From the NCBI GenBank assembly GCA_965200245.1, contig CBDATS010000008.1, positions 192,001 through 256,000 of the forward strand: a stretch of DNA of 64,000 nt, read 5' to 3'. The notes below the pieces were generated by a model. That model saw only the letters and a program-made list of their open reading frames with translations. It searched no databases and was not told where the DNA came from. This stretch comes from a bacterium (lineage in GTDB: Bacteria > UBA8248). This document shows positions 3,461 through 33,625 of the stretch, in pieces. Position 1 is the first letter of the stretch. Each line of letters begins with the position of its first letter. The translations under genes and the position numbers were made by a program.

Positions 3461-5398
3461 GGGGGCCGGAAAATCTATCTTGAAAACATACCTCGAGAAG
3501 AGGCACTCTCGCGTCTTCTCGAGAAAATAGGCGACTTCCGCCTGGAAGAGGAGGAAATCGCTACGCCGGAGGCTTTGGGACGCGTGACCTCCCGGGCGAC
3601 CTACGCGCAGATTTCGAGTCCGCATTTTCACGCCGCCGCCATGGACGGGTACGCCCTCGCCTCGTCGGAAACCTCGGGAATAACCCCCGTGAGCCCCAAG
3701 GATTTTCTGCTCGGAGAAGAGGCTTACCCGATCGACACGGGCGACCCGATGCCCGAAGGAACGAACTGTGTCGTCATGATCGAGCATGTCCACGAGGCGA
3801 CCCCCGGTGCCATACGTATGGAGATGGCGCTCTCCCCCTGGCAGAACGTGCGCGTGGCGGGAGAAGACGTCGTAGAAGGTCAACTCATCCTCACGGCGGG
3901 ACATACTTTAAGGCCCTACGATCTGGGCGGTCTTCTCGCAGCGGGCGTCACGCGGGTGTGGGTGCGGCAGCGACCGAGGGTCGCCATCATCCCCACCGGC
4001 GATGAACTAGTGATAGCGGGTACAGATCTCAAACCAGGCGATCTGGTGGAGTTCAACTCGTGTGTCCTGTCTGCTTTCATCGCCGAATGGGGTGGAGAGG
4101 CACTGCCGGGTACGATTCTGGAAGATAGGTTCGAGGCCATCGAGTCTGCGGTGCGAGACGCGCTCGAAAGTGCCGATATCGTTTTGGTGAACGCGGGCTC
4201 ATCCGCCGGGCGTGAAGATCACACCGCCGCCGTCGTGGAGAAGTTGGGTGAACTACTCGTGCACGGCGTTGCCATCTTCCCCGGCAAGCCCACAATCCTG
4301 GGCGTTTGCGAGTCTGGATCAGGGTTACGCAAGCCCGTGCTCGGAATTCCGGGCTATCCGGTCTCGGCGGTACTGGCGCTTCAGGAGTTCGTACGGCCAC
4401 TGATTGCGCGCATGTCGGGCACGGTTCCAGGAGAAGAAGAGCGCATCAAAGCCTTCATGGGCCGGAAGAGCGCCTCAAGACTGGGGATGGAGGAATTCCT
4501 GCGCGTGAAACTCGGCCAGGTCGGCGAGCGGATGGTCTGCCTGCCCGCCAAGCGCGGGGCCAGTGTCATCAGTTCGCTCGTGGAGGCGGACGGCGTGGTG
4601 CGCGTGCCCGCTCACTCGGAGGGAGTCGAAACGGGCGAGGAGGTGACGGTAGAACTCTTGAGGCCACTATCCGATATTCAGGGTAACCTGCTTATGGCTG
4701 GCAGCCACGACAACGCCCTCGACCTGCTGGCGGGTGAATTGAAGGTACGCCACCACGATGCGCGTCTTTCTACCTCGGCGGTGGGTTCACTGGCGGGCCT
4801 CATCTCCGTGCGCGACGGCGAGGCTCACATTGCGAGCAGCCATCTGCTCGATCCGCAGACGGGAGAATACAACTGGCACTACATCGAGCGATATCTCAAG
4901 GGCCGCGAAGTCGTGGTGGTGAATTTCGTGCAAAGGGAACAGGGTATCCTGACGCCCAAGGGCAATCCCAAGGGGGTTACGGGCATCTCGGACTTGAGCC
5001 GCAATGATATCCACATAGTGAACCGCCAGAGCGGAGCGGGCACGCGGGTGCTGCTCGATCACTTGATGGAACGTGAGGGTCTCTCGCCAGCAGATGTCCG
5101 GGGCTATGAGCGGGTGGAAACCACACATATGGCAGTGGCCATGGCGGTGGCGGCTGGACGAGCGGACGGTGGTCTGGGTATATTCGCCGCCGCCAGAATA
5201 CTGAATCTCGATTTCATCCCGCTGGAGCGAGAACGGTTCGATTTTATCGTCCCCGCAGAGTACTGGGTGACACCCGCCATACAAAAGGTTATGGACATTT
5301 TGAATGACCGGGCTTTCCGGGATGCCGTGGAGGAACTCGGCGGGTATAATACGGCGTTGACTGGCCAGGTAATGGCTCCACCCCAAAGAGAAGGCTAG
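3461..5398 (+). CDS. MoeA paralogue fused to C-terminal periplasmic-binding-protein (molybdate/tungstate-binding-like) domain; 5' start anomalous
   Basis: AAMDGYA, TGDPMP, TGDEL and PGKP MoeA motifs, then GSHD...GSLAGL...NRQSGAGTRVLLD...THMAVA PBP-domain motifs. The frame stays open upstream of the ORF-track start to 3461 (GGRKIYLENIPREEAL), bounded by in-frame TAG 3458-3460. Confidence 0.88.
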   Translation, partial: GGRKIYLENIPREEALSRLLEKIGDFRLEEEEIATPEALGRVTSRATYAQISSPHFHAAAMDGYALASSETSGITPVSPKDFLLGEEAYPIDTGDPMPEGTNCVVMIEHVHEATPGAIRMEMALSPWQNVRVAGEDVVEGQLILTAGHTLRPYDLGGLLAAGVTRVWVRQRPRVAIIPTGDELVIAGTDLKPGDLVEFNSCVLSAFIAEWGGEALPGTILEDRFEAIESAVRDALESADIVLVNAGSSAGREDHTAAVVEKLGELLVHGVAIFPGKPTILGVCESGSGLRKPVLGIPGYPVSAVLALQEFVRPLIARMSGTVPGEEERIKAFMGRKSASRLGMEEFLRVKLGQVGERMVCLPAKRGASVISSLVEADGVVRVPAHSEGVETGEEVTVELLRPLSDIQGNLLMAGSHDNALDLLAGELKVRHHDARLSTSAVGSLAGLISVRDGEAHIASSHLLDPQTGEYNWHYIERYLKGREVVVVNFVQREQGILTPKGNPKGVTGISDLSRNDIHIVNRQSGAGTRVLLDHLMEREGLSPADVRGYERVETTHMAVAMAVAAGRADGGLGIFAAARILNLDFIPLERERFDFIVPAEYWVTPAIQKVMDILNDRAFRDAVEELGGYNTALTGQVMAPPQREG

Positions 5399-5402
5399 AA
5401 CG

Positions 5403-6386
5403 ATGGCGTTATTTGATCGGTACGGGCGCGCGCATGATGATTTGAGGATATCTGTGACGGATCGGTGCAATTTCCGGTGCTTCTACTGCATGCCGGAAGA
5501 GGGTATGACGTGGCTGTCGCACGAGGAAATTCTCAACTATGAAGAGATTACCCGCGTGGTTCACATCACTACCGAACTGGGGTTCACGAGCTATCACCTC
5601 ACGGGTGGCGAGCCGCTCATCCGCAAGGACTTGCACCGCCTCGTCGAACAGATGGTGGCAGTGCAGCCCGGTATGGACCTTGCCCTGACGACGAACGGCG
5701 TTTTTCTTCCAAAGATGGCGAAGGATCTCTATGCGGCGGGATTGAGGCGTGTGAACATCAGCCTGGATTCGATGGACGCGGGTAAATTCCTGTTCATGAC
5801 GCGTCGCGATGTGTTCGGGCAGGTGATGGAGGGCATCAAGGCGGCCGCGGAAGTCGGGTTCTCGCCCATCAAGATCAACGCGGTAGCGATCAAGGGGCTG
5901 AGCGAAGAGGAATTACCGCGCTTCGCCAAATGGTCGCGCGAGACGGGCTACATCGTGCGCTTCATCGAATACATGCCGCTTGATGCGGACCAGACTTGGG
6001 CGCACGAGAAAGTCTTGACAGCGGAGGAGATACTGGAAGGTCTATCCGTTGAGGGAGAACTCGAACTCGTAAGCGGTCATCCCTCGGACCCTGCGGTACG
6101 CTACCGTTATAAGGACGGGAAGGGCGAGGTGGGCGTAATCGCCTCGGTCACGCGGCCGTTTTGTCAGGATTGCAACCGCATCCGTCTCACGGCAGACGGC
6201 ATGGTGCGAACATGCCTGTTCTCCACGGTTGAGCATGACATCAAGAGGTTGCTCAGAGGCGGTGTGTCGAACGATGAGATAAAGGCTTGGCTCGCCGAGG
6301 TGGTGCGCACGAAGACGCCGGGTCATCTCATAGGCCAGAAGGAGTTCGTCCAGCCCGAACGCACCATGAGTGCTATCGGCGGCTAG
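5403..6386 (+). CDS. moaA: GTP 3',8-cyclase MoaA (radical SAM)
   Basis: LRISVTDRCNFRCFYCMP, LTGGEP, C-terminal FCQDCNRIRLTADG..RTCLF and terminal MSAIGG. Confidence 0.97.
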   Translation: MALFDRYGRAHDDLRISVTDRCNFRCFYCMPEEGMTWLSHEEILNYEEITRVVHITTELGFTSYHLTGGEPLIRKDLHRLVEQMVAVQPGMDLALTTNGVFLPKMAKDLYAAGLRRVNISLDSMDAGKFLFMTRRDVFGQVMEGIKAAAEVGFSPIKINAVAIKGLSEEELPRFAKWSRETGYIVRFIEYMPLDADQTWAHEKVLTAEEILEGLSVEGELELVSGHPSDPAVRYRYKDGKGEVGVIASVTRPFCQDCNRIRLTADGMVRTCLFSTVEHDIKRLLRGGVSNDEIKAWLAEVVRTKTPGHLIGQKEFVQPERTMSAIGG

Positions 6387-6492
6387 ATTTCCCGTATCTA
6401 GGTTCGGAATCAACCACTCATGTGATGAAGCGGTGCCTGCTCGCGAACCGCTGTTTCCGGCGAAATAAATTCACAAAACTTCCTTATTTATT

Positions 6493-7450
6493 GGGAATTA
6501 CATACTTGAATCCGCAAGTCTGAATATCCTGATTTTGCGTTTTCCGGGTGTATCTTTTCAGGTCACAGGCGGAATTGCTGTCAGAACCGGTGCATGCGCC
6601 GCCTTCTTCCATTCAGCCGATACACCGGAACTGACAGTAATTCGAACGTGGGCACTTTCGTATATGATTTCCCTTGTTGATACCAACCGTGATCGTCAAG
6701 GGACGCAGCCGTGATACGGCCTGGTTTTACCTCACCCGGGAGGAATGATCTGCTGTCCGCCAGGCACACGACCGCTGGCTCGCGCCGGACAGTTTCGACG
6801 CCACGGGCCGCCAGAAATGCCCGCCAGGCACCCTCACCCGCGCGCTTTGGTGAAAAGGCCTGTTCCCTCCGGACGATCAGCTGTCGTTCGGGGAAGAAAA
6901 TCGTGACACCCCAATCTCCCTAATTATGAGCCATAATAGGGATTATCATACAATCCGCCTTGAACAGACGCTGTTCCGTGGTGAGCCGGGGCGAAGACGG
7001 AAGGACGAGATAGCAGTTCTCGGCGTCGTCCTCCATCACATGCAGGTTGAAAGTCTCCGGCACCGAGATTCCGAACTCCTCGGATACCACGGCCCTCGGC
7101 TCGGAGATCAGACGGGTACGGAACTCTTCACTGTCGCCTGCCTTCTCGATCAGGTGCTCGCGCATCTCGGAAATAGATTTCATTCCGGTCTCCTTATCCT
7201 GAAAAAATGAGTATGGTTTGGTACCCTGATACTTTCGTTTTTTTGCATCGTCATCATGAACAGGGTATGGGATGTTCCGATGGGAAAGCAGGAAATTTTT
7301 CGATGGTTTTCCCGTTTTTCTGTTGGGGAACAGGCTTTCTCCCGGAAGCCCGTCCGTATGCCCCCTGTTCTCCCGGGAAACCGGCGGCCGAAGGCTCCGT
7401 TTTTCCAAAATTCAGGGAGCCAGACTTGCGGATTCAAGTATGTAATTCCC
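6493..7450. mobile_element. non-autonomous cargo-carrying transposon (MITE/MIC-like), 958 bp
   Basis: Perfect 30-bp terminal inverted repeats GGGAATTACATACTTGAATCCGCAAGTCTG (6493-6522) and its reverse complement (7421-7450). Flanked by 8-bp direct repeat TATTTATT (6485-6492, 7451-7458). No transposase inside. Confidence 0.93.
6924..7183 (-). pseudogene. NHLP-leader (proteusin-type) RiPP precursor with frameshift just before the double-glycine site
   Basis: ATG 7183 with AAGGAG RBS; MKSISEMREHLIEKAGDSEEFRTRLISEPRAVVSEEFGISVPETFNLHVMEDDAENCYLVLPSSPRLTTEQ is a typical NHLP leader. The -1 frame from ~6971 reads ASVQGG-LYDNPYYGS-stop (TAA 6924-6926). Confidence 0.85.
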
Positions 7451-7652
7451 TATTTATTCCTGTCCTGAATTCTATGAACACCGCTTTTGCACATCGCATT
7501 TCGTGGTTTTCCCAAGTCGTTTTTATGGAACTTCCTTGTGTCTAGAAACTTGACATTCGTGACTTTGTGATAAGATCGTGGGCACCTCAGCGTAGGACAC
7601 ATCGGGCGAAATATTCGCTCTCGGTGTTCTCTTTCGGAGGAACGCAGGAGAA

Positions 7653-9155
7653 ATGAGCAGAAGAACAGCCGCAGCCCTCGGCCTTGTACTTCTTATGATT
7701 GCGGGCGAGACCGTCGTCGCAGAGGCGGGCCGCCCCAGAAGGGGGAGTAGAAACCGCATCGTATCGGTTCAGGTACAAAAAGTCGCCGTGGGCCGCCTGG
7801 GCAGACGGTTGGCGGCCACGGGAACACTCCTGGCCCAGAGTGAAGTCAAGCTCATGTCCCGCGCCGAAGGTCAGGCGCAGGAGATACTGGTGCGCGAAGG
7901 AGCGCGCGTCGCAAAGGGGCAAATCCTTGCGCGCATTGATTCTACCATCAAGCGAATCGATTTGAAGTTGGCCGAAAGCGAACTCGCCGCCGCGCGGGCG
8001 AACCTGGCGAAATTGAAATCCGGAAGCAGACCTGAAGAAATTGCAGCAGCCGAGGCTGCCGTGGCCCAGTCGGAAGCGACTCGCAAGCGCAGCGAGGCGG
8101 AAATCACCTCCACCCTCGCCAGGCAGGAGGAAGCGGAAGCCAACGCACGTTCTTTGGGTGCCCTGCACAAAACAGGTGTCATCAGCGCGCAGGAGTGGCG
8201 CAAGGTAACGACCGAGGCGAATCGCGCTCGTGCGGACGTGGCCGAGCGCAGGGCGCGCCTCGCCGAGGACGCCGCGCGGGTCCGCGCGGCGCAGGAGAAG
8301 CTCAAGCTCGTGAAAATCGGCGCGCGCGCAGAGGATCTGGCAATGGCGCGGGCGGAAGTGCGTAAGCGTCTCCAGCAGGTGAGCCGTCTCAAGGTGGAGG
8401 TGGAATATTTCACTGTCCGCTCACCGATTTCAGGCGTCGTTACCGAAAGGAGAATCGAGCCAGGCGACCTTGCGGTGAACAGGGTACATTTGTTCACCAT
8501 CTCCCAGACGGACACGCTTCGCGCCCGGGTGCGGGTGAGTGAGCTGGATCTGCCGCTCATCAGAAAAGGCCAAGGGGCGCGTGTCGAGCTCGACGCCTAC
8601 CGGGGCCGTCCGTTCTCGGGGAAGTTGACGCGAATTTTCCCTAGTGTGGACCCGAGTTCACGCCAGCTTATCGTAGAGGTGGACGTGAAAAATACGGATT
8701 TCTCCCTGAGGCCCGGTCTTCTCGCCCGGGTGAAGTTTGAACCCCTGTTAGGCAGGCGAGCGATCAACCTGCCGGTTCACGCTGTCCTCTGGGACGGGGA
8801 CTTGCGCACCAAGGCAGGCGCCGTCTTCGTCGTCCAAAGCCTCCGACGGGGAGCGGGAAGAGGCGGGCCCGGAGGACAAGGCGGCCCAAGCAGGAGAAAT
8901 GAGGCGCGTAGCGGCGGACAGAGAGGCTCCGATAGGGGGAGTGGAGCCCGCAGGGGAACGGCCGAGGCGAGCGGGCGCAGCGGGGCAGGAAGGCGCGGTC
9001 CGCGCTTCATGGCGGTACGCCGTGAGGTGCGTTTGGGTGAGATGATCGACGGCCGCATCGAGATTCTCGGTGGTCTTCGTGCAGACGAGCGGGTGGTCGT
9101 GAGCGCCATCAGCCAGCTAAGGGACGGGCGTCCCATTCGGATCGTCGGGCCCTAA
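7653..9155 (+). CDS. RND efflux periplasmic adaptor (membrane fusion protein)
   Basis: Lipoyl half-motifs (ILVREGARVAKGQILARID; VRSPISGVV), long coiled coil, LRPGLLARV; directly upstream of an RND permease. Confidence 0.9.
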   Translation: MSRRTAAALGLVLLMIAGETVVAEAGRPRRGSRNRIVSVQVQKVAVGRLGRRLAATGTLLAQSEVKLMSRAEGQAQEILVREGARVAKGQILARIDSTIKRIDLKLAESELAAARANLAKLKSGSRPEEIAAAEAAVAQSEATRKRSEAEITSTLARQEEAEANARSLGALHKTGVISAQEWRKVTTEANRARADVAERRARLAEDAARVRAAQEKLKLVKIGARAEDLAMARAEVRKRLQQVSRLKVEVEYFTVRSPISGVVTERRIEPGDLAVNRVHLFTISQTDTLRARVRVSELDLPLIRKGQGARVELDAYRGRPFSGKLTRIFPSVDPSSRQLIVEVDVKNTDFSLRPGLLARVKFEPLLGRRAINLPVHAVLWDGDLRTKAGAVFVVQSLRRGAGRGGPGGQGGPSRRNEARSGGQRGSDRGSGARRGTAEASGRSGAGRRGPRFMAVRREVRLGEMIDGRIEILGGLRADERVVVSAISQLRDGRPIRIVGP

Positions 9156-9172
9156 GAAAAATTGGTGACCTC

Positions 9173-12100
9173 ATGCTGAGCCGAAGCTGTATCCGAAGAC
9201 CCGTGGGAACCATCATGGGCGTCGTGTGTGCACTGGTACTCGGTTTCTTCGCACTCACGCGGTTGCCAGTCGATTTTTTGCCCAGAATTATCTATCCGCG
9301 TATATTCATCGGCATCGATTTTGAAGGGGCCGACCCCAAGGTGGTCGAGGAGCAAGTCACCAAGGTGGTCGAGCGCGAACTCGCGACCACGCAAGGGGTG
9401 GTGCGCATATTCTCCATCAGCCGTGAAGGTGCAGCGCGCTTGTGGATGTTCTTCGATTTCACTCGCGACATCGATCTCGCGCTCCAGGACGCTATCAGCA
9501 AATTCAACGTCGCCAGAAGAAACCTGCCGCAAGAGATACAGGATCAACTCCAGAACACGCGCATTTTCAAGTCCGACCCGGCGCAGGTGCCCATCATCGA
9601 ATATGCGCTGTCTTCGAAAACTCTCAAAGGACCGCAGCTTCAGACCTGGGCGCGCAAGGTGCTCATCCCCCAACTCATGACCGTTCCAGGCATCGCCTCG
9701 GTAGAAGCGTTCGGCGGCCAGGACGAGGAGGTGCAGGTTCTCGTCGACCTGCCCAGGATGCAGGGCCTGGGCCTCGACCTGCCCGCCGTACTGAGAAGGA
9801 TGCGCGCTGAAAATAAGGATTTGGCCGCAGGACGGGTGAAGACTGTCCATCGGGAGTATTCGAGTCGGACGGCGGGTAAACTCAAGAGCGCAGGTGAACT
9901 TTCGCGCCTGATTTTCCCTACCAAGGACGGTCGGCGGGTCTATCTGCGTGATTTTGCCAAGGTGCAGGACGCTGGCAAGGAGCGGCGCATATTTGTTTGG
10001 CTGAACGGCGATGAGAGCGTCAAGGTTGTGGCCCTCAAGCAACCCGACGCGAACACAGTCTCCGTCGTAGATGGCCTGCGCGATAGACTTGCTTTCCTCA
10101 CGCGATACGGCATCGTGCCACCAGACATCACACTCGTCCCGATATCAGATCAGAGCTTCTTCATCCGTGCCTCGATCAAGAATGTCCTCTCTTCCGCCTT
10201 GGTGGGTGGCGCGTTGGCGATATTGGTAGTGCTTTGTTTCCTGGGGAGTCTCAGGCGCACGTTCATTATAGGCCTGGCAGTCCCGATTGCTTCTGTCTTC
10301 ACGTTTTTCCTTATGTGGGTATTGGGCTTTACTTTCAACATATTCAGCTTGGGAGGCGTGGCACTCGGCGTGGGAATGCTCGTGGACAACGCCATCGTCA
10401 TGCTCGAGAACATCTCGCGTCATCAGGGAGAAGGAGGCGACCCCGTGGAGGCGGCCGAGAGAGGCGCCGGTGAGGTGGAGAGTGCCATGGTCGCTTCCAC
10501 GCTCACGAACGTGGCTGCCGTTATGCCGTTTCTGCTGATCTCGGGCTACGTGGCGCTCCTGTTCCGGGAGTTGATACTCACCATCACGCTGGCTTTCATT
10601 TGCAGCCTCATGGTCGGCCTCACGGTGGTGGCCATGCTTTCCGCAAGACTGTTGCAGGTTCCTATGAGCAGCGGTTTCAGTCGCTTTCCGCTCTTCCGAC
10701 TTTTCATCCGGTTTGTGGACCTCGCCAACCGGCTGTACCGTTTTCTCTTGAGGCCGGTGCTCACTCTCCGCTGGGTGGTTATCATCCTCGCCCTGGTCAT
10801 CTGCACGAGCAGCTACACGCTCATTGGCAAGCTGGGTAACGAACTCCTGCCCCAGGTGGATGACGGACGGATCTCAGTCGACATTCGTTTTTCCCCGGGT
10901 GGGACCCTCGAATACACCAAACAGGTGACACGTGAGATTCACGACATGCTCGTGCGCGATCCTGCGGTGGACAAGGTGTTCGCCACGGCGGGGGGACGTC
11001 TTTTCGGAAGAAATTTTTCGCCATCCGCTTCTCGGGGCAGAATCGACGTGACGCTCAAAGATGGCGTGAGCGTGTTTGGCTACCTCAAGAAACTGAGGTC
11101 CCGCCTCTCTCGAATGACGTATCCCGACGCGCGGATTTACGCTTTCAAGAGCCGGGTACGCGGTCTTCGCACCTCCAACACCCGGCACAACAAAAGCTTC
11201 TCCCTGGGTGTTCGGGGCGAGGACTTACCCACGCTCAACCGCGTTGCCGAAGAAGTCGTCGAGAAGCTCCAGGGGGTGGCAGGGCTTCACAACGTGCAGA
11301 TGACCGAGGACAGGCCTCGCCCCGAGTTCCGCATCCAGGTGAATCGCGAGCGCGCGGCGGAACTCGGCTTATCCGTCGAGGACGTGGGCGACACTGTGGC
11401 CACTGCGATCGACGGCTCGATAGCTACATTCATCAACAGAGTGGACACACGCGTGCCGGTGCGGGTCAAGTTCTCCGATACCGAGATCAAGAGTGAACAG
11501 GATTTGGCGCAACTACCACTGTTTCCCCAGAATCAGAACTGGCGATCCACACGCCTGAACCATGTGGCGCATATTCGCTACGGACAAGGCAGTTCGGTCA
11601 TATCGCGAACGGATCAAAACCGCCTTATCCAGATAACGGGCGACATCCAGGGCCGCTCGCTGGGCGATGTGAGCGCGGACGTTCGCGAGCGGCTCAAGGA
11701 CGTCAACGTGCCGAGGGGTTATTTCATTTTGCCGGGAGAGGACGAGGAAAACCTCAAGAAATCGAATCGGGAGTTGATAATCCTGGCCCTGCTGGCGATA
11801 TTCCTAGTCTACACGGTGCTGGCCGTCCAGTACGACTCGCTCGTGAACCCCCTCGTCATCATCTTCGCAGTGCCGCCCGCGCTCACGGGCGCGCTCTGTG
11901 GTCTCTATCTCACTGGCACGCCTTTCGGCTCGACGGTGCTCATTGGTGTCATCCTGCTCGTGGGCATCGTGGTGAACAACTCCATCGTGATGATTGATTA
12001 CGTCGAGCGCTTGAGAGAACGCGGGATGGAGATACGTGACGCCATTGTAGAAGGGGCGTCGACGAGGCTGCGCCCGATTCTTATGACCACACTCACCACC

Positions 12101-12313
12101 ATTATCGCGCTCACTCCATTGGCGAGCGGCTGGGGGAAAGGGTCAGAGATGCTCAAGCCCTTGGGGCTGGTCGTGCTGAGCGGACTTTCGCTCTCTACCC
12201 TGTTCACGCTTTTCCTCGTGCCGTGCATCTATCTCGCTGCCCAGAACTTCGTGCAGAGCTTGAGGCGTGCCATAGGCTTGCACGAGACGAAATACACGGT
12301 GCCCACCGCGTAG
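9173..12313 (+). CDS. RND efflux permease (AcrB/AcrD/AcrF family)
   Basis: 1046 aa; RRPV N-terminus, GMLVDNAIVMLENI, GIVVNNSIVMID and RLRPILMTTLTT motifs. Confidence 0.95.
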   Translation: MLSRSCIRRPVGTIMGVVCALVLGFFALTRLPVDFLPRIIYPRIFIGIDFEGADPKVVEEQVTKVVERELATTQGVVRIFSISREGAARLWMFFDFTRDIDLALQDAISKFNVARRNLPQEIQDQLQNTRIFKSDPAQVPIIEYALSSKTLKGPQLQTWARKVLIPQLMTVPGIASVEAFGGQDEEVQVLVDLPRMQGLGLDLPAVLRRMRAENKDLAAGRVKTVHREYSSRTAGKLKSAGELSRLIFPTKDGRRVYLRDFAKVQDAGKERRIFVWLNGDESVKVVALKQPDANTVSVVDGLRDRLAFLTRYGIVPPDITLVPISDQSFFIRASIKNVLSSALVGGALAILVVLCFLGSLRRTFIIGLAVPIASVFTFFLMWVLGFTFNIFSLGGVALGVGMLVDNAIVMLENISRHQGEGGDPVEAAERGAGEVESAMVASTLTNVAAVMPFLLISGYVALLFRELILTITLAFICSLMVGLTVVAMLSARLLQVPMSSGFSRFPLFRLFIRFVDLANRLYRFLLRPVLTLRWVVIILALVICTSSYTLIGKLGNELLPQVDDGRISVDIRFSPGGTLEYTKQVTREIHDMLVRDPAVDKVFATAGGRLFGRNFSPSASRGRIDVTLKDGVSVFGYLKKLRSRLSRMTYPDARIYAFKSRVRGLRTSNTRHNKSFSLGVRGEDLPTLNRVAEEVVEKLQGVAGLHNVQMTEDRPRPEFRIQVNRERAAELGLSVEDVGDTVATAIDGSIATFINRVDTRVPVRVKFSDTEIKSEQDLAQLPLFPQNQNWRSTRLNHVAHIRYGQGSSVISRTDQNRLIQITGDIQGRSLGDVSADVRERLKDVNVPRGYFILPGEDEENLKKSNRELIILALLAIFLVYTVLAVQYDSLVNPLVIIFAVPPALTGALCGLYLTGTPFGSTVLIGVILLVGIVVNNSIVMIDYVERLRERGMEIRDAIVEGASTRLRPILMTTLTTIIALTPLASGWGKGSEMLKPLGLVVLSGLSLSTLFTLFLVPCIYLAAQNFVQSLRRAIGLHETKYTVPTA

Positions 12314-19775: not shown

Positions 19776-19852
<77 letters not shown>

Positions 19853-19922
19853 TATTTTCGGAAACTCGGATCGCCCTTCCCTCCATACGCGAGGCCACCG
19901 CGGGAGAAAGGGATGAAGGCAT

Positions 19923-19999
19923 GGTGGGTGTAGCTCAGTGGTTAGAGCGCCGGGTTGTGGCCCCGGAGGTCGGGGGTTCAAATCCCCTCACTCACCCCA
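19923..19999 (+). tRNA. tRNA-His (GTG)
   Basis: G-1, acceptor GTGGGTG/CACTCAC, C discriminator, CCA; anticodon arm CCGGG-TT-GTG-GC-CCCGG. Confidence 0.97.
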
Positions 20000-20057
20000 C
20001 GGCATTTACATTTTCTTGAGCGGAATCACTGTTCCGAACAAGACCAGCGGATATCAG

Positions 20058-20134
20058 GCGCCCGTAGCTCAATTGGATAGAGCGTCGGACTTCGGATCCG
20101 AAGGTTGTAGGTTCGAGTCCTACCGGGCGTGCCA
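20058..20134 (+). tRNA. tRNA-Arg (TCG)
   Basis: GCGCCCG...CGGGCGT GCCA; anticodon arm TCGGA-CT-TCG-GA-TCCGA. Confidence 0.96.
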
Positions 20135-24382: not shown

Positions 24383-25408
24383 TCACGCAGCGCGCAGGAA
24401 ACAAACGATGTAGCCTTTTACGCTGGTTTCCCGTTCCCCGATGACGACTTTAATATGATTGACGCCCCAAAAGAGGTGCATCATCTTGCCGTCGGGGCCG
24501 AAGAATCGCTCGCTGCCGATGCAACTGATCAGTGCGGCACCCTTGTCAGCCAGAAACCAGCCGCGGTCCGCCATCGGGGAGAGGAGCCTGCCCCATGCGC
24601 CGTGGTCGGTCGATTTGTTGAAATGGAGTTCCATTCCCATGCGCGGGCTCAGTCCTTCTCGCGTTAAATCGAGAGATAGATAGACACGGTCCGGGAAATT
24701 CTCGATCATCGTCAGAACGTCCTCGACAACCACCATGCGTCCGGGATGCCCCATAGCCTCCAGAAAGGCAGAGATTTTCGCCCGGGGACAAAACATCACC
24801 AATCTCATGGGCGAGGGATTGCGTCCTTGCATGACGGCGCACTAACTCAGGCGGGTATTCGGCGGAAAAACTCGCCAGATCCCTTCGAGAAAGTGCAAAC
24901 GACGAGGATCCGGCGCTCCCCCCGTGGCAAAAGCCAGCGCGGCGTCGACTATACCCGCGTTTAGGTGCTCTACGCGCCCGTCACGGCGAAGGTTGAGAAA
25001 CAGGCTTGGCAGGGGCAGACCGTGTTCTTTCAATGTGGAGGCAACATCGTATTCGAAAATCGCGGAATCGAACAGGCCAGAAAGAAAGGAGTCGGGACGT
25101 GCCAACTCATCAAAATAGTTCGCCAGGGCCGCGGTCGATGCGTCGGTTTCTTCCCGGTTGCCGCGCTCAATCAGCCAGCGCGCCATCGGCGAGTCCGGCA
25201 GAACCGCCAATGAAAAGTCGGCACCAGCTTCCGCGTCGGAAAGGTCACATTCGAAGCCGAATTTCGCGTCCGCCACAGAGGCGGGCAACTCCGACATCCC
25301 TTCAAGAAGACGATTCCACCCCGGCTCATCAATCAGCCGGGGCGGTATCTGCGAACGGATGAACGTGTCGAGCACAGAAGCAAAATCGCTATATCCCGTA
25401 CGTTTCAT
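24383..25408 (-). pseudogene. putative peptide prenyltransferase-like RiPP maturase interrupted by in-frame TAG (24844-24842)
   Basis: ORFs 24842..25408 and 24383..24832 are in frame (NTRLS-TAG-CAVMQGR). FGFECDL...ADF...FEYDV...PSLF...LSLDL...PRMGMEL...NHIKVV...KGY pattern resembles proteins found beside NHLP/Nif11 precursors; the function call is inference. Confidence 0.6.
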
Positions 25409-25527
25409 CTGGATTTTCCGACACCTCTATCCGGCGCGGAAAAACCGGAAGGGACCTGATATTTTGCTATCATCCACAACTCTAATACTGCCAATAATTA
25501 TCTCTTTGATTAAAATTAGCGGATATC

Positions 25528-25557
25528 AAGATTTGCGGATTTAAGGAAATAATTACC
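25528..25557. repeat. degenerate copy of the 6493-7450 element terminal inverted repeat
   Basis: AAGATTTGCGGATTTAAGGAAATAATTACC vs CAGACTTGCGGATTCAAGTATGTAATTCCC: 23/30 identical by manual alignment. Adjacent GGATAT also matches the sub-terminal sequence of the left IR. Confidence 0.75.
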
Positions 25558-25753
25558 TAGGATAGGGATACTGTGTGCTCCAAAATGTCAAAGGCCTCAG
25601 AAGCCGGGCACACAGGGAACATCTCACCCATGAGCGTGGGTTTGCCAACTCCTGTCTGGCCGCAATCACTTCAAACTCGTGATCCAAGACCCAAAAGGGC
25701 AGGACAAGGCATATGCGAGGGCGAAATTCCTGTTCTGACGAGGGTCAATAACG

Positions 25754-26710
25754 ATGCACTTCTCTCCTGACACAACGTGTCGTATGCGCGATGCGATCGA
25801 CAGGGGCTTGACGTTTCTCGATTCATGTGTGGGTCACGACGGGCAATGGCCTTCCTATTGCTCTGGACGGGTAGGGGACCAGTATATTCAAAAGCACGAA
25901 GAAGGGAGTCCCTTTTTCGCCATGCTGGGTGTTCTTTCCCTTTCGGAGATTGACGACTCGCGCGCGCGAAATATTGTGGGAAGGACGCGCCGGCACCTCT
26001 CTGAGACAATGCTCTATCTCGGTATCTGGAGATACTGGGATGCGCTGCCCCCCTATGCCGATGACTCTGCCGTAGGCTCACTGGCCCTCGGGCCGCATCC
26101 CCTGTTGCTCGCCGGACGCAATGTCGACCTGTTTCTCCGCCATCGCAACGACAGCGGCTTGTTTCTGACTTGGTTCGAGGGCCAGACACCCGAAAACGAC
26201 GTGGACTCCGTCGTTAATGCCAATGTGGTTGCCTACCTGGGTGACAATGGGGAGACGCGCCCCGCCCATGAGTGGTTGAAGTCGCTGGTGGAAGGCGGCG
26301 GGGACTTGAGCGAGACCATGGTCTACTATAAAGAGGATATGGACCTCTACGGCGCGCTCGTTCGAGCTAGCGAGTACGGCAAACCCGCCTTTGCAGGATT
26401 GCGTTCTAAACTCGGCCACCTGATTGAAAGCGCGTGTAAGGAAGGGGTGACCTACGGGGATCAGTTGCGCACCGCTCAAGCTCTAGTCGCGCTGGCGGAA
26501 CTTGACGCGTTGCCATCGCTGGCGAAACTCGAACAGACGATGGATTTCATTCTTTCGAAACAGAAAGCCGACGGCCGATGGCCGGAATCACCAGGTTCCT
26601 ATGGCCCCCGGCCGCCCGATCCGATTCGAACCCTGGTCTTTTGCTCCCAAGCTTATGATACCGTCCTATGCATTGAGGCGTTGCACAAGGTTTTGGCCAG
26701 AGCCGCCTGA
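25754..26710 (+). CDS. prenyltransferase/squalene-hopene-cyclase-repeat protein (class II terpene cyclase-like)
   Basis: QW-type repeats (FLDSCVGHDGQW; FILSKQKADGRW), LPPYADDSA at the DxDD position, and DVDSVVNANVV motif. Confidence 0.7.
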   Translation: MHFSPDTTCRMRDAIDRGLTFLDSCVGHDGQWPSYCSGRVGDQYIQKHEEGSPFFAMLGVLSLSEIDDSRARNIVGRTRRHLSETMLYLGIWRYWDALPPYADDSAVGSLALGPHPLLLAGRNVDLFLRHRNDSGLFLTWFEGQTPENDVDSVVNANVVAYLGDNGETRPAHEWLKSLVEGGGDLSETMVYYKEDMDLYGALVRASEYGKPAFAGLRSKLGHLIESACKEGVTYGDQLRTAQALVALAELDALPSLAKLEQTMDFILSKQKADGRWPESPGSYGPRPPDPIRTLVFCSQAYDTVLCIEALHKVLARAA

Positions 26711-27598: not shown

Positions 27599-30541
27599 TC
27601 ACGCCGACTGGCGCTTTAGGAAATCGCGAAACAGGCCATCGGCCTCACTGAGTTCCTCGAACGTGCCTTCCCGGACAACCTTCCCGGCCTGAAGAACATA
27701 TATGCGGCTCGCCTGGCGGATGGTGGAGATACGATGAGCAATGACGACCCGCGTTGCACTGGCTTTCTCTATGCCTTCCATGGTCAATTTCTGGCTCTTC
27801 GCATCAAGCCAACTGGTGGCTTCGTCAAGAAACAATATGCTTGGCTTGCGCACCAGCGCCGCCGCAATGCGGATGCGTTGTTGTTGTCCGCCGGAAAAGG
27901 TCGAGCCGGTTCCACCCATCGGAGTGTGCATTGCCATCGGCATGGCGGAGATTTCCTCGTTAACCGCAGCCTGCCTGGCCGCCTGCCAGGCGTCGTCTAT
28001 GCTAAGGTTTTCATCCACGCCATTGATGTTACTCATCACTGTGCCCGGCAGCAGGCTGTTTTCCTGCATAACCACGCCGATCTGGCGGCGAATAGAATCG
28101 GGATTGAGGCGGGCAAGATCGTGGCCGTCGTAATAGACCGTGCCGGAAGACGGCGTTTCGAGGCCGAGTGCGAGGCGGACGAGAGTGCTTTTCCCCGACC
28201 CGGATTCCCCAACGATGGCGATGAACTCGCCCGATTTCGCGCGGATTGTTACGTCGTCGAGAACGAGTGGGTCAGATTCCGAATAGCGAAAACTCACATG
28301 GTCGAAGAGGATTTCGCCGCTCAATTTCACTTCTACTCCGTCATGCATCCCACCCTCGGGCAGTTCTTCCATGATTTCCCGTGACTGTTCTCCAGAAGGA
28401 ACAAGCGATGCGATCGTCTCGAATGACAGACTGAACATAATGATCGATCCGACGAACATCATTGACGCAGAGTAAACGACCAGGAAGTCTCCGATCGAGA
28501 AATGAGCCCTGTCCTGGGTGAACGCGACGGCGATGACCGCAGCAGTCCACAAGGGAGGAACAGAAAGGGCGAACGCCACCAGGCATTCGTTCACCCGTGA
28601 AATACTGATCTCGGCCAGCTTCTGGTCCCGGTACTGTCGTGCCCACCATGCGTAAGCGGACGGCTCGGCCCCTGTCGCCCTCAATTTGCCTATTCCGTTG
28701 ATTAGCTGGAAAAGATGACTAGCCAGCTTGCGCACGGCACTGAAACGGCGTCGGTGATGTTTGATCTGGAGCAGGCCAAGGGCGGCGGTGAGACCTAGAG
28801 TCACGATGCCAAGGACGAGAATCAGCCATCCCATCGCGGTATTGTAGACAAAAACCAGAGCGAAGGTTGGAAACAGGAACAGCATGGATAGTATTGCGCC
28901 GGACGCTATAGCAGAAAACTGGTCGCGAATAACCTGGAACGTCATGGCCCGCGTCGCCAGTTCGCCGGCGGTGAACTGGCGGAAAAACGCCGGGCGTAGC
29001 CGCAGGAGGCGATCCCATATCGCTGCCACGACGCGAGTAGTAGCCCGGCCTTCGATTCGCATCATCGCTGTACCGCGCAACATGTTCAGGAATCCCGTCG
29101 TCACTGCCATCAGCAACAACAGACCGGTCACATATACCAACGGCCTATGTTCGCCCGCCGGCGCCAATATGTCAGCCAAAAGACCGATGACTGTGGCAGG
29201 AACCAGCAGAATTGCGCCAGCGATTATGCCCGCTAGTATCACCTGAATGAAATCCTGAGTCTGCTTCCAGAATGCGGTACGGAGGAGGTCACGGGGACTG
29301 GCTGGTCGATCGGTAGGCAGGGGACGATGCACCATCACGGCATCGTCATTAAACTCGGCGGCATTCGCCGCAGTTACGCGCCGGGATGCGCCCGACAGAG
29401 GATCGATGCAACGATACCATCCGAGACGCCCGGGAATTAGCGCGACCGGCTGGCCATCGTTGCGTCGAGACGCAATCATCGCGCCACTGTCTCCATACCA
29501 CCATCGATCTTCCTCCTTCAGTCGTATGCATCGAACGCGCAAACCCGATGCAATCAGGACCGCATTGAGGTCGTTTTTCGCTTCAGCGGTTTCAGGGACC
29601 TGAATGGGTATGTCTTCATGGGCACCGACGAGCTGCAAAGCTGCAAGGAGTCCGGATTCATCGTCAAACTCTTGACGACGGAATTGGTCGATAACGGAGA
29701 AAAGACGATGCCGAGAAGCAGACTTGTTCTGTCTGCGCCATGTTGTCCGGTCGCGCTGGAAGTTCGCCTCGTCTGCAAGCAGCAGTAGGCGGTTAAGGGC
29801 CTCGACTGCAAGCGCGAGTCGATGAAACTCCGGCAAATGGAGGGACACCAGGTCGGCAAGCGCTATATCTTGGGAGGACATTGCTTCGATCTCGGCCGAC
29901 TCGGGCAGCGTAGCCCAGATTCCGGGGCTGAGCGGCATCAACCCCGACTGTCCAGAACCTGCCTCTTCCGTGCCTAGATAGGACGCCCGGACATCAAGGC
30001 CATGAAACCAGATAACTCCCCGTTCCGAAGAGATGATACCCGATGCGGTTAGCGTCAATCCGGCTTCAAGCAAGCTGTCGGCACGTGGCCTCGGGTCGAT
30101 ATCGCGAATGATCGCTTCGGCGAATTCGCGAACCCAGGTATCGACCTGTTCAGTCAAGGCGGCACGTGCCATCTGATCGGGCAGGCAGTCCAGCAATTCC
30201 GCGAGCGGCACCGGGCGCAGAATCGCACCGGGAAGTCCCTTGGCAATCAGACTAAACCCGGAACTATCATCACTGTTCTGGCCAAACAGGATGCGACCGC
30301 GTCGTGCGCGAACCATGTGCTTGAAAGCTGATGTGGTGTTATCGTCATGACACTCAACCACGAAAACATCGACCGTGCCACGTTCCACAACCCAGGCCAT
30401 GTTCGAGTCGTCAAGCCGCATTGGCCGGTTGCCGGCGCAGGGAACAGGTTTTCCGAGGGAGCACAAAATCTCTGCGAATCCAGCGCCATCGCCGGGTTGT
30501 TCCGATGTGGTATTGCGATTAGGCTGATCGGATGAGTTCAT
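27599..30541 (-). CDS. NHLP/NHLM bacteriocin system ABC transporter, ATP-binding/permease subunit (no peptidase)
   Basis: N-terminal WVVERGTVDVF extension, WWYGDSGAMIA, TM domain, GESGSGKST, FSGGQQQR and LFLDEATS. Confidence 0.9.
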   Translation of the reverse strand: MNSSDQPNRNTTSEQPGDGAGFAEILCSLGKPVPCAGNRPMRLDDSNMAWVVERGTVDVFVVECHDDNTTSAFKHMVRARRGRILFGQNSDDSSGFSLIAKGLPGAILRPVPLAELLDCLPDQMARAALTEQVDTWVREFAEAIIRDIDPRPRADSLLEAGLTLTASGIISSERGVIWFHGLDVRASYLGTEEAGSGQSGLMPLSPGIWATLPESAEIEAMSSQDIALADLVSLHLPEFHRLALAVEALNRLLLLADEANFQRDRTTWRRQNKSASRHRLFSVIDQFRRQEFDDESGLLAALQLVGAHEDIPIQVPETAEAKNDLNAVLIASGLRVRCIRLKEEDRWWYGDSGAMIASRRNDGQPVALIPGRLGWYRCIDPLSGASRRVTAANAAEFNDDAVMVHRPLPTDRPASPRDLLRTAFWKQTQDFIQVILAGIIAGAILLVPATVIGLLADILAPAGEHRPLVYVTGLLLLMAVTTGFLNMLRGTAMMRIEGRATTRVVAAIWDRLLRLRPAFFRQFTAGELATRAMTFQVIRDQFSAIASGAILSMLFLFPTFALVFVYNTAMGWLILVLGIVTLGLTAALGLLQIKHHRRRFSAVRKLASHLFQLINGIGKLRATGAEPSAYAWWARQYRDQKLAEISISRVNECLVAFALSVPPLWTAAVIAVAFTQDRAHFSIGDFLVVYSASMMFVGSIIMFSLSFETIASLVPSGEQSREIMEELPEGGMHDGVEVKLSGEILFDHVSFRYSESDPLVLDDVTIRAKSGEFIAIVGESGSGKSTLVRLALGLETPSSGTVYYDGHDLARLNPDSIRRQIGVVMQENSLLPGTVMSNINGVDENLSIDDAWQAARQAAVNEEISAMPMAMHTPMGGTGSTFSGGQQQRIRIAAALVRKPSILFLDEATSWLDAKSQKLTMEGIEKASATRVVIAHRISTIRQASRIYVLQAGKVVREGTFEELSEADGLFRDFLKRQSA

Positions 30542-32708
30542 GGTAAAGACCCATTCCTATTGCCATTAACTCCTCATGCGTGCCGCGCTGAACCTCCTTG
30601 CCGTGCTCAAGTACCACGATCAGGTCACTGTCTCGGATAGTGCTCAACCTGTGCGCGACGATTAGACAGGTGCAGCCACGTCGGCGTATCGCATCGTCAA
30701 TCTGCAACTCACTCACGGCGTCGAGTGCGCTGGTGGCCTCATCGAGAATCAGGACAGATGGGTTGCTTGTCAACGCCCGAGCGATCTCCAGACGTTGCCG
30801 TTGCCCCCCGCTGAAATTGCGCCCGCCCTCTTCGACTGCCGAGGCATAGCCCAGTGGGCGGGAGGTGATTTCTTCATGAATAGCTGCGTCACACGCCGCC
30901 GCCACGAGCGTGTGATCGGGTATCGTCGGGTTCCACAGGGCCAGGTTGTCATTCACGGTGCCAGCAAAAAGAACGATATTCTGGTCCACCATCGAGACGG
31001 AACTGGTAAGTATCTCACGAGGTATCTCGCTCCGAAGGTGGCCGTCAAACCGGACTTCACCGGACCAAGGCTGGTAAATACCAGCAACCAGAAGAGATAG
31101 TGTCGATTTGCCGGAGCCGCTCGGCCCTACGATTGCTACGCGCTGTCCCGGCTCAATTGTGAGATTGAAATTCTCGATCAATGGAGGACGATTTGGTTGA
31201 AAACCGAAGGTGACATTGTTGAGTTCCACGCGGCCAACGAGTTGCATCCGCCGGTTCAGCGTGACAACCCTTTCCGACTCGGTCCCTTCATCTCCGGCGA
31301 GTTCTTCGTCCAACTCGGCATCCAGTACATCATCCAGCCTGCGTAGATTGGCAGACATGGTTTGCAGTATGTTGGCGAACTGGACGAACCTTCCCACCGG
31401 TTGCAGGAAATTCATCGTCAGGACGTAAAAGGCGGTAAGTACACCAAGCGTCATTTCACCCGACATCACCCGCCACCCACCAAAGCCGATGACCAAGGCA
31501 GAACCGAGTACAAGAACCGTTGGCAGCAGCGATTGGACGACATGGCCGAGTTCCATGAATTTTTGTCTCGCGTTGATTTCACGTGCTTGATAGCCGCTGA
31601 AACGCGAGAAGAAACTGTTTTCCGAAGCGGTTGCCCTCAGCGTGTCCATGATGCTCAACCCGGCCATGCCGTGGCCCATCATCCTGCCCTGCTCATGGAG
31701 CAATGCATGGTTATGGTCGGTTTGCAGTTTCGTGACATAATGCATTACAAAGAGGCAAAGCAGGCCGAGCCCACCGACCGCAGCGCCCAGCAACGGTTCG
31801 AGATAGAGCATCAGAACCAGGAAGGCCAAGCTCATGATCAGTTGAATGACGATTCCTATCAACTGGACGGATCCGATCGATGCGATCAGGTCGATCATCT
31901 GCATGCGTGAGGTCAAATCGCCTGCGAAGCGGCGGCTGAAAAACTTCATTGGCAAACGCATTAATCGGTTCAGGTAGCGGTCCGATTGCTGGATGGACAG
32001 GACAAGAGAAACCTTTCGTAGTATGCGCATCTGGAGCCATGTCAACACATAAGATGAAAGGCCGACTGCAATGGTCAATCCGAGCACGATGCCGATCCAG
32101 TCATCCTGCGCATCGCCGATAACATGGTCTACGAAGGCGGATAGCAATATTGGCAGGGCGAGCCCAGACAGCACCAAGAGCAGGCCGCAGATGATGGCGT
32201 AGGCGAGAGCCGGACGCACGGGGTTCAGCCATGGCCAGAACTGTTTGAGCACTCCGGGAGGTGGTTCACTGGTCTCAAAGGATGGTCCCGGCTCCATTTC
32301 CATGGCAACGCCGGTAAAGCATCGGTCGAATTCGTCTTCACTGATAATACGGTGTCCCACCGCTGGATCGTTCACATAGTAACGGCCGTTTTCAACCCCC
32401 TCTAGGACGACAAAATGCCGGAACTCCCAGAACAGGATGAGTGGGATTTTCATTGGTGGCAGTTGGTGAAGTTCCTTGCGCCATGCCGAAGGTTGCAGAC
32501 CGTAGACGCGGGCCGCCTTGACAATGTCGGCGGCGCTGGCACCATCGCGTCCGACGGCGCAAGCCTCGCGTAACTCCTGTAGCGGAACCCATTTTCCCAG
32601 ATACGCGAGGATAATGCCGAGGCAAGCTGCACCGCATTCCGTGTTTTCGAGTTGCAAAAGTATAGGGGTGCGAACGCGAGCGCCGGACCTGCGTCTGAAC
32701 AAGGCCAT
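30519..32708 (-). CDS. NHLP/NHLM bacteriocin system ABC transporter with C39 peptidase
   Basis: RVRTPILLQLENTECGAACL and FWEFRHFVVLEG (catalytic Cys/His intact), GPSGSGKST, FSGGQRQRLEIARAL. Confidence 0.95.
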   Translation of the reverse strand: MALFRRRSGARVRTPILLQLENTECGAACLGIILAYLGKWVPLQELREACAVGRDGASAADIVKAARVYGLQPSAWRKELHQLPPMKIPLILFWEFRHFVVLEGVENGRYYVNDPAVGHRIISEDEFDRCFTGVAMEMEPGPSFETSEPPPGVLKQFWPWLNPVRPALAYAIICGLLLVLSGLALPILLSAFVDHVIGDAQDDWIGIVLGLTIAVGLSSYVLTWLQMRILRKVSLVLSIQQSDRYLNRLMRLPMKFFSRRFAGDLTSRMQMIDLIASIGSVQLIGIVIQLIMSLAFLVLMLYLEPLLGAAVGGLGLLCLFVMHYVTKLQTDHNHALLHEQGRMMGHGMAGLSIMDTLRATASENSFFSRFSGYQAREINARQKFMELGHVVQSLLPTVLVLGSALVIGFGGWRVMSGEMTLGVLTAFYVLTMNFLQPVGRFVQFANILQTMSANLRRLDDVLDAELDEELAGDEGTESERVVTLNRRMQLVGRVELNNVTFGFQPNRPPLIENFNLTIEPGQRVAIVGPSGSGKSTLSLLVAGIYQPWSGEVRFDGHLRSEIPREILTSSVSMVDQNIVLFAGTVNDNLALWNPTIPDHTLVAAACDAAIHEEITSRPLGYASAVEEGGRNFSGGQRQRLEIARALTSNPSVLILDEATSALDAVSELQIDDAIRRRGCTCLIVAHRLSTIRDSDLIVVLEHGKEVQRGTHEELMAIGMGLYHELIRSA

Positions 32709-33625
32709 TACCGAGAGGATGGTCCCGTATTGGCCAGAAGGGCCAGTGGCGATACCGTCTCCAGAATGATATGGATCCGGCAGGGCGCGGCATCTGACGG
32801 TACCGTATTTGGTTGTCCAAGCATGATTAGGCGCACCATATGTAGAGGCATTCTTTCTTTCCTCTCACCTTCTGCCAAAGCTATGCGGGACAACCACGCG
32901 GGTGGTAGTGACGCTCTGGGGGCTACTGTTTTTACCTCGGCAGGCACGGACTGCTGGTTGCGCAGATTGTCGATGATGACGCGCGCCCTCATACTCTTTC
33001 GCAGTTTCTGCGCCCGCGCCGGCGGAAGAAATGCCAAGATTTCCAGACCATCGTCTCCGCCTCTGCGCAGATCCGATACTGGCGTGCCGACATCCACGGC
33101 TTGTCCGACATGAAGATGAAACGCCGACACTACGCCCGAATAGGGAGCGACAATCGCGCTCGCAGCTCGGTGTGCGAGCAGTCCTACCAGCTCTTGGCGG
33201 GCCACCGCCAGAAGCCCGCCGTCGAAATTGGTACCTGGTCCGTCTTGACTGGCCTCGCGCTCCAACAAGGCGATTCTCTTCCGCAGAACGGTCAGTTGTG
33301 TATCGAGTTCTGGCAACCGAAGGCGAGCAATCGGCTGGCCCTCGGCAACTTCGTCGTTCACTCGAACCAGAATTTCCGACACGGTGCCCGTCGTTCCGGA
33401 CAGTATGGTATGACGCTCTCCCGAACGCAGGATGAAGCCGTTCGCGGTCATGCTTCGTTCCAGGCTGCCAAACGCCAACCAGACGCAAGCGGCGGCGAAT
33501 GCGATAAGAAAACCGGTCAGGATGAGCCATTCATGCGGCGCCGTAATGCGCAGCAAATCATCCAGAGGATCCGGATTTGATTGCCTGAGAATGGCACGTT
33601 CCCGAAAGAGCCCTAGCGTAAACAT
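32708..33625 (-). CDS. NHLP/NHLM bacteriocin system secretion protein (HlyD family)
   Basis: LFRERAI..QSNPDPLDDLLRITAPHEW N-terminus, single TM, lipoyl motifs; first gene of the exporter triad. Confidence 0.9.
   Translation of the reverse strand: MFTLGLFRERAILRQSNPDPLDDLLRITAPHEWLILTGFLIAFAAACVWLAFGSLERSMTANGFILRSGERHTILSGTTGTVSEILVRVNDEVAEGQPIARLRLPELDTQLTVLRKRIALLEREASQDGPGTNFDGGLLAVARQELVGLLAHRAASAIVAPYSGVVSAFHLHVGQAVDVGTPVSDLRRGGDDGLEILAFLPPARAQKLRKSMRARVIIDNLRNQQSVPAEVKTVAPRASLPPAWLSRIALAEGERKERMPLHMVRLIMLGQPNTVPSDAAPCRIHIILETVSPLALLANTGPSSR

Follow-up and report, generated by a model that had tools for sequence, protein, structure and literature searches.

In a 64,000-nucleotide stretch of bacterial DNA (C8:192001-256000, hereafter the window) we find a 958-bp mobile element whose cargo is a precursor gene with an NHLP-type leader, of the kind that gives rise to peptides made on the ribosome and modified after translation (RiPPs). 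Together with its relatives elsewhere in the genome, this element makes it probable that a family of non-autonomous mobile insertion cassettes (MICs) of the IS1595 type copied the precursor genes of a single RiPP pathway and spread them through the genome. The genome (G000) comprises 3.68 Mb in 15 contigs with 57% G+C, the assembly is 95.8% complete with an estimated contamination of 8%, and the sequencing runs that contain the stretch are labelled as sponge metagenomes.

A recently mobile element separates moaA from an efflux operon

The element occupies positions 6493-7450 of the window, coordinates that were read directly and also recovered by a repeat finder. Its terminal inverted repeats (IRs) are perfect, with the left 30-mer (GGGAATTACATACTTGAATCCGCAAGTCTG) matching the reverse complement of the right end at 30/30 positions, and the octamer TATTTATT abuts both ends as an 8/8 target duplication (Table 1). 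On the 5' side lies moaA (5403-6386; Radical_SAM and Mob_synth_C domains) and on the 3' side a gene for an HlyD-type membrane fusion protein (MFP) adaptor (7653-9155), followed by one for an AcrB-type pump (9173-12313). The NHLP open reading frame (ORF) on the minus strand scores 65 bits against TIGR03793 (cut-off 50.9), and an NCBIfam scan of three further ORFs in the element gave no family match; since only the NHLP ORF matches a family, the element is one without a transposase. A tblastn search with an IS1595 transposase likewise found no match inside any cassette of the genome. An earlier first-pass annotation, made from the DNA letters alone, had described the size of the element, its perfect repeats, the 8-bp duplication, the missing transposase, the moaA and RND-operon neighbours and an NHLP-leader gene with its own ribosome-binding site (RBS), and all of these are as it stated. 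Its description of the NHLP gene as the only recognisable content has to be amended, because the element also holds about 165 bp from the 3' end of a GNAT gene (see below).

The element is a true insertion and has been mobile recently. Using window positions 5403-9155 in a DNA search, we found both flanking genes in 22/22 congeners and the element between them in none. In the congeners G006 and G008 the two genes are only 52 and 42 bp apart (BLAST coordinates), and the spacer aligns to both window flanks with one octamer, TATATTTC, replacing the arrangement TATTTATT-element-TATTTATT. A second copy of the element (C4:570771-571728) differs at 3 of 958 positions (99.7% identity) and is flanked by AGTATTTC and AATATTTC, which match at 7/8 positions. 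Its site is empty as well: the flanking genes are adjacent in 15/15 congeners in which a single contig contains both of them, and alignment of the G018 spacer reveals one octamer at this site. The relatives thus hold the empty sites that the first-pass annotation had suggested looking for.

We also considered whether a repeat had been misplaced between moaA and the efflux operon during assembly of the metagenome-assembled genome (MAG). Fragmentation into 15 contigs, the contamination of 8% and the frequent location of contig ends within cassette repeats would fit such an artefact, but the perfect target duplication argues against it and contigs of the DNA run X2 (covering 5900-6522 and 7420-8100) cross both junctions with zero mismatches. 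X2 may be the source sample, so these contigs are not independent proof; even so, we regard a misassembly as extremely improbable.

Complete and one-ended cassettes are scattered through the genome

With up to 7 mismatches allowed, the genome contains 32 IR-like ends but 0 occurrences of the reversed pattern, so these ends are not due to chance. A tblastn search with the window ORF returned about 36 NHLP genes, which correspond to 30 loci once tandem genes are merged and a contig-end duplicate is dropped (C15:1-4816, identical to C2:1023-5838). Twelve of the 30 loci lie within complete IR pairs, ten have one IR and eight have none. The remaining IR is located upstream of the gene at nine of the ten one-IR loci and downstream at the other, six of the eight IR-less loci retain part of the upstream arm, and an nhmmer model of the right arm has 39 matches in the genome. 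The complete elements (n=12) are 599-1005 bp long and each encloses one or two NHLP genes: two genes are arranged in tandem inside one element at C2:304598-305596, and the element around C4:1959-2469 appears to hold tandem NHLP genes too. A one-off capture, which the first-pass annotation had counted against its idea, does not apply, since RiPP genes are enclosed by 12/12 complete IR pairs.

The 8-bp duplications match at 7/8 or better in 7/12 complete elements. They are perfect (8/8) at the window copy (TATTTATT), at C4:84522 (AAAATTCA), at C4:1426664 (AAAAATTC) and at the 688-bp element around the tandem genes C4:1959-2469 (AAACAATT), and reach 7/8 at C4:570771, C4:1371916 and C2:243327-244331; two elements score 6/8 and three score 4/8 or fewer. 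Every target is AT-rich, against a genomic G+C content of 57%. For young copies, identity stops exactly at the IR ends, as in the 1005-bp pair C2:243328 / C15:315993, which is 100% identical. Alignment of eight elements revealed a common order of IR-L, a left arm of ~190 bp with a hairpin, a short unalignable stretch that encodes the leader end and the core, the leader coding sequence, the RBS, a right arm of ~240 bp and IR-R.

These data also bear on the possibility that NHLP genes expanded by ordinary duplication and homologous recombination, with the IRs as passively copied remnants of an old insertion sequence (IS). Such a process would accommodate the 8/30 loci without an IR and the 10/30 with one, and recombination among copies is indeed clear from a GNAT microhomology junction and from identity breaks at the leader/core junction (both described below). 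It is nevertheless highly improbable as the origin of the family in view of seven complete elements with 7-8/8 duplications at unrelated AT-rich sites, the end of young-copy identity exactly at the IR ends and the precise empty sites in congeners for both young copies.

Two further arrangements were seen. The cassettes C4:72368-73059 and C4:84522-85213 are 100% identical, have the same orientation and lie 12 kb apart, one with a perfect duplication and the other without, and may represent a recombination product or a composite arrangement. In the left arm, the ~50-bp repeat at window 6594-6643 is present in many copies in each of all 22 congeners and is similar to the repeats that terminate a different IS family in the genome (C4:705182-706424).

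The cargo has a conserved leader and a variable core

Among 16 type-1 genes, mean pairwise nucleotide identity is 0.89 for the leader and drops to 0.61 for the tail, which comprises cleavage site and core; the values for the 250 bp upstream and the 150 bp downstream are 0.73 and 0.59, respectively. The median dN/dS of the leader is 0.31 and lies below 1 in 102/105 pairs among 15 genes, the pairs not being independent of one another. A G-G/A/S cleavage site is present in 15/16 type-1 tails and is followed by a core of 3-16 residues. These cores are rich in Tyr, Trp, Asp and Gly (for example YYDWDDAF, YWGDVPNHV and QYDPFGGRIP) and the cassette cores show no Cys, Ser or Thr pattern. Judged from the substitution pattern, the leader appears to be under purifying selection and the cargo of the family is, or was, functional. 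Leaders that are kept while cores differ across mobile copies argue that transposition multiplied and scattered the precursor genes.

The window copy departs from this pattern. Its precursor ends in ...LTTEQRLFKADCMIIPIMAHN, the C-terminal 16 residues are atypical and a G-G/A/S motif is absent, so the protein is probably defective and not a working substrate. The first-pass annotation had pictured it as a processable precursor within a set of mobile precursor cassettes; mobility and the link between cassette and cargo stand, and the part that fails is the window copy's own precursor, which is probably dead. As this copy is among the most recently moved, movement is independent of a working cargo.

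Cores also change abruptly between otherwise matching loci. C5:328952-329591 and C15:101341-101980 are 100% identical and C2:304738-305343 and C4:1844-2449 are 99.8% identical; in both pairs the likeness ends exactly at the leader/core junction, beyond which lie different cores or none. Such a break may reflect core exchange by recombination or truncation.

A GNAT fragment points to recombination in the ancestry of the window copy

In the element alignment, homology of the window copy to the canonical elements is broken between ~6690 and ~6970. The intervening DNA corresponds to the end of a full-length GNAT gene (C15:340180-340911; Pfam Acetyltransf_3) that lies tail to tail with an NHLP gene lacking an IR, and sequence orthologous to the GNAT segment is present in 22/22 congeners. 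The same GNAT fragment is found in the 1005-bp elements. At the junction there is a microhomology of 13-14 nt (...GATCGTCAAGG) that the C4:1371916-type cassette also has, so the fragment entered by recombination between a cassette and the chromosomal locus. A known RNA was ruled out as the source of the extra ~270 bp, which is the GNAT gene fragment: an Rfam search of positions 6300-7700 at E<=1 gave no match.

The cassette ends resemble those of an IS1595-family insertion sequence

When one genome per species was searched with a degenerate IR pattern, the only match was in an Arenicellales MAG (OY843749.1). This genome contains three 1.23-kb IS copies with ends GGGAATTACATACATAAATCCGCA, which agree with the first 24 nt of the cassette IR at 22/24 positions. 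Their ORF encodes a 309-aa transposase that has the IS1595 hallmark and reaches 186 bits against NF033547, for which the cut-off is 75. This MAG also holds six cargo-less 215-bp miniature transposable elements with inverted repeats (MITEs) and the same ends, 5/6 of which have perfect 8-bp AT-rich duplications, and its NHLP-like genes lie outside the IS and MITE elements. Duplications of 8 bp are typical of the IS1595 family. The guess of an IS1595 affiliation in the first-pass annotation has thus gained an autonomous IS with the same ends at 22/24 positions and a transposase of this family, and the element is best explained, from its ends and target duplication, as a non-autonomous derivative of the IS1595 family. 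Because MITEs are short and non-coding, a 958-bp unit with an 87-codon gene is better labelled a MIC. As side observations, the Arenicellales loci (L030-L038) are a classic example of an autonomous IS accompanied by its MITEs, and the flanks of one MITE and of the IS copies do not match, which points to inversions among the copies.

In the genome of the window itself, one intact IS1595 transposase gene was found (C14:1779-2777, 332 aa), whose product is 41% identical to the Arenicellales transposase. It is part of a 5.9-kb IS1595-family transposon (C14:1703-7627) with IRs that match at 22/30 positions (GGGAATTATACGG...) and a perfect 8-bp duplication, AAACCGAA. The transposon ends and the cassette IRs share only GGGAATTAT and a shifted ACTTGA, and the transposase is accordingly a candidate mobiliser, no more. 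Two nested DDE_Tnp_1 transposase genes are contained in this transposon and a HicB-family ORF is located just outside it (8769-9218). We looked for transposase genes beside nine lone or one-sided IRs and found none, and no cassette-type IR lies near the degraded IS1595 transposase remnants of the genome. Other repeat families of the genome were rejected as a source because their ends are unrelated, namely an IS256-like family (C1), an IS1-like family (C4:615xxx) and a mutator-like IS (C4:705182).

An exporter and a P450 are candidate partners of the cassette precursors

About 20 kb from the element, the window encodes an NHLP bacteriocin export system on the minus strand (Table 1). We infer that cassette precursors are processed in trans by this system, whose C39-peptidase ABC exporter would release the mature peptides. 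A solo IR-like sequence (window 25528-25557, 7 mismatches) stands beside the exporter operon between ORFs without assigned function and has no adjoining NHLP gene. No modifying enzyme was found beside the window copy, and neither the ORFs without assigned function beside the exporter (24383-27480) nor those at the P450 locus gave a usable family match.

The P450 in question is a 430-aa cytochrome P450 encoded at C2:3836-5128, between a cassette IR and a divergent NHLP gene with the core NLYY. Its locus (C2:3836-7374, duplicated at C15:1-4816) continues with a 357-aa ORF without assigned function and part of a gene for an ABC exporter of the NHLP type. Some P450s are known to cross-link aromatic residues in RiPPs. 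From its gene neighbourhood, the locus may be one for a P450-modified NHLP RiPP, and the enzyme may serve as a maturase for the aromatic-rich cassette cores.

Weighing spread for its own sake against a precursor library

Several results count against a family of working precursors spread by IS1595-type transposition. Three complete elements have no recognisable target duplication, and the 95.8%-complete assembly contains no autonomous IS with matching ends, so that the transposase-bearing copy the first-pass annotation wished to see was not found in this genome. A read joining both flanks of the window copy, representing the empty-site allele, was sought in four runs and none was seen; the raw-read run X9 contributed 18 reads only. 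No modifying enzyme was recognised beside the NHLP exporter, and a promoter scan of the element found no sigma-70 consensus, so that the promoter in the right arm remains a presumed one. The two most recently moved copies, in the window and at C4:570771, both encode a precursor without a cleavage motif, and the copies C2:3349, C2:26427 and C4:1517706 are frameshifted or stop-less. Finally, in the RNA libraries X6 and X7 the depth over family sequence relative to flanking genes, a measure that sums all copies, is about that of the DNA run X2, and cassette expression is thereby neither shown nor excluded.

The missing cleavage motifs, the broken copies and an RNA depth that gives no signal above the DNA ratio would also be expected if a selfish, MITE-like element had captured an NHLP gene once and spread, leaving unused and decaying precursors whose core variety stems from drift, truncation and read-through. 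Read-through of this kind is suggested by the core at C15:101324 (RLDIF), which begins at the exact point where 640 bp of 100% identity to another copy end and runs into unrelated DNA. Against this stand the leader dN/dS of 0.31 (102/105 pairs below 1), the retention of G-G/A/S and a short aromatic-rich core in 15/16 type-1 genes, the conserved RBS and upstream arm and the dedicated NHLP exporter that the genome retains, and we consider purely selfish amplification unlikely for the family as a whole.

For the cassette family, we infer a transposition mechanism in which a DDE transposase of the IS1595 type, acting in trans, would recognise the 30-bp repeats and place the unit in intergenic octamers rich in A+T, with duplication of 8 bp. 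The passenger would be a self-contained expression unit composed of ~240 bp of upstream DNA, the RBS, the NHLP-leader gene and the downstream hairpin. Across the family, with 12 complete and at least 10 one-ended copies, the leader appears to be kept by purifying selection and the short aromatic-rich core varies, and the P450 beside another NHLP gene could modify the peptides. The window copy, the youngest member, is a degenerate one: recombination with the IR-less NHLP locus added the GNAT 3' fragment, and the cleavage motif was lost. Irrespective of what its cargo does, this copy thus moved as selfish DNA. A more far-reaching picture, which we put forward only tentatively and hold to be less probable than its denial, is that of a symbiont library: IS1595-type transposition spreads promoter-leader-core units, recombination with breaks at the leader/core junction swaps the cores, and all of them feed a single stationary and promiscuous machinery of P450 and NHLP exporter. 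If true, it would be the first RiPP precursor expansion traceable to a defined transposition mechanism.

The expansion is specific to this genome

NHLP leader matches number 36 in this genome and 0-7 in each of 41 relatives, where they are at most 45% identical; as the relatives hold so few and such distant NHLP genes, the expansion is specific to this genome. The 30-mer IR has no match at up to 3 mismatches in the 41 family relatives. With the 24-mer and the same tolerance, a few elements with other cargo were detected in four congeners, together with one match in the same class but in a different family. In G026 (L081:1501-2229, 729 bp) and G017 (L079:1501-2590, 1090 bp), IRs of this type enclose units of 34-39% G+C that have small unrelated ORFs (141, 84, 155 and 56 aa) and neither an NHLP gene nor a transposase; a 7/8 duplication flanks the unit in G026. 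These units indicate that the IR family bears other cargo in related genomes. A metagenome scan yielded three loci, none of them with NHLP cargo.

Relation to known mobile elements and precursor expansions

The element is a variant of the already known mobile insertion cassette, and the RiPP precursor passenger with its varied cores is the new part. MICs such as MIC231 of the Bacillus cereus group and the IS1595 transporter ISs likewise surround passenger DNA with IS-type IRs and a target duplication, and MICs also lack a transposase and are mobilised in trans by a related IS. What sets the present family apart is its passenger, a RiPP precursor gene that brings its own expression signals and is present in at least 12 copies that vary in their core. 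We know of no MIC family with RiPP precursor passengers of varied core, and a search of the open-access literature brought up no report of RiPP or NHLP precursor genes located within elements of the MITE or MIC type. The 215-bp Arenicellales MITEs (OY843749.1) share 22/24 end positions, the 8-bp AT-rich duplication and the need for a transposase in trans, but they are short and non-coding, whereas the cassettes described here span 600-1005 bp and hold a gene that appears to be under purifying selection. IS1595 is the family for which IS copies with passenger genes have been described. The terms MIC, MITE and transporter IS are used as PMC3129680, citing Siguier et al. 2009, defines them.

Closest in outcome are the prochlorosins of marine picocyanobacteria, which also comprise dozens of scattered precursors whose leader is conserved and whose core is hypervariable; these presumably feed one promiscuous pathway, and a mobile-element enzyme is suspected behind their expansion as well. 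According to Laurenceau et al. (bioRxiv 10.1101/2020.03.09.984088), ProcA expansions are associated with TnpA_REP transposases, and a later note by the authors sees no strong evidence for or against causality. In that case the relation is one of co-localisation only, the transposase is of the Y1 (HUH) type and the leaders are of the Nif11 type and feed LanM. Here, in contrast, the precursors have NHLP-type leaders and sit inside units bounded by terminal IRs with target duplications and empty sites, which constitute direct evidence of DDE-type transposition.

RiPP genes have been tied to mobile DNA in other ways. In PMC4603692, transposases flank TOMM/NHLP clusters and transposons bear whole bacteriocin or lantibiotic clusters; there, whole clusters including the enzymes are moved or flanked, whereas in the present case the substrate gene alone is mobile and enzymes and exporter are stationary. 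Transposases near RiPP clusters are mentioned in PMC10783134, and the main text of PMC9426513 reports many NHLP clusters in sponge symbionts, the string 'transpos' being absent from it.

For libraries of the prochlorosin type it is still an open question how a bacterium acquires dozens of precursors that share a leader and vary in core, and the TnpA_REP link remained unproven. In the genome studied here, traces of the multiplication step are preserved as terminal repeats, target duplications, empty sites in relatives and near-identical copies elsewhere, which make the question testable. A defined unit of 0.6-1 kb and a candidate transposase family suit a transposition assay, and the cassette cores can be taken as candidate substrates of the exporter and of the P450 that neighbours an NHLP gene. 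For genome annotation, short IR-bounded units may hide RiPP precursors far from any biosynthetic cluster.

Other features of the window

Table 1. Features of the 958-bp element and of the NHLP export system, in window coordinates.
Feature	Position	Strand	Basis or remark
Left target-site duplication TATTTATT	6485..6492		Read directly; related single octamer TATATTTC at the G006/G008 empty sites
IR-L, 30 bp	6493..6522	+	Equals IR-R 30/30; first 24 nt match IS1595-family IS ends 22/24
Conserved left arm, downstream of cargo gene	6523..6689		Eight-element alignment; nhmmer left-arm model
Long hairpin in left arm	~6568-6646		Two inverted copies of a ~50-bp genus-wide repeat; dG -42.3 kcal/mol, z -3.6
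GNAT 3' fragment (...IVKGRSRDTAWF...ALW, then stop)	6690..6853	+	Alignment to the full-length gene C15:340180-340911
Donor-locus intergenic spacer after GNAT fragment	to ~6917		Same alignment
NHLP-leader precursor gene, 87 aa, leader intact	6920..7183	-	ATG 7183-7181, stop 6922-6920; TIGR03793; comparison of 16 paralogue tails
RBS AAGGAG, 7 nt 5' of ATG	7190..7195	-	Read directly; kept in element alignment
Conserved right arm upstream of the cargo gene; promoter presumed here	7184..7420	-	Alignment; nhmmer right-arm model
IR-R, 30 bp	7421..7450	-	Equals IR-L 30/30
Right target-site duplication TATTTATT	7451..7458		Read directly
NHLP bacteriocin export system	27599..33625	-	Candidate leader-cleaving exporter acting in trans, 20 kb from element
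HlyD-type adaptor	32708-33625	-	TIGR03794 partial, 82 bits, below cut-off
C39-peptidase ABC transporter	30519-32708	-	TIGR03796, 902 bits (cut-off 853); Pfam Peptidase_C39
Second ABC subunit	27599-30541	-	TIGR03797, 684 bits (cut-off 709)

At gathering thresholds, the only Rfam matches in the whole window are three tRNA genes (RF00005, 70-78 bits), which are clustered on the plus strand at 19776-20131. Directly upstream of moaA, positions 3575-5398 encode a MoeA-like protein with a C-terminally fused PBP_like (periplasmic-binding-type) domain.

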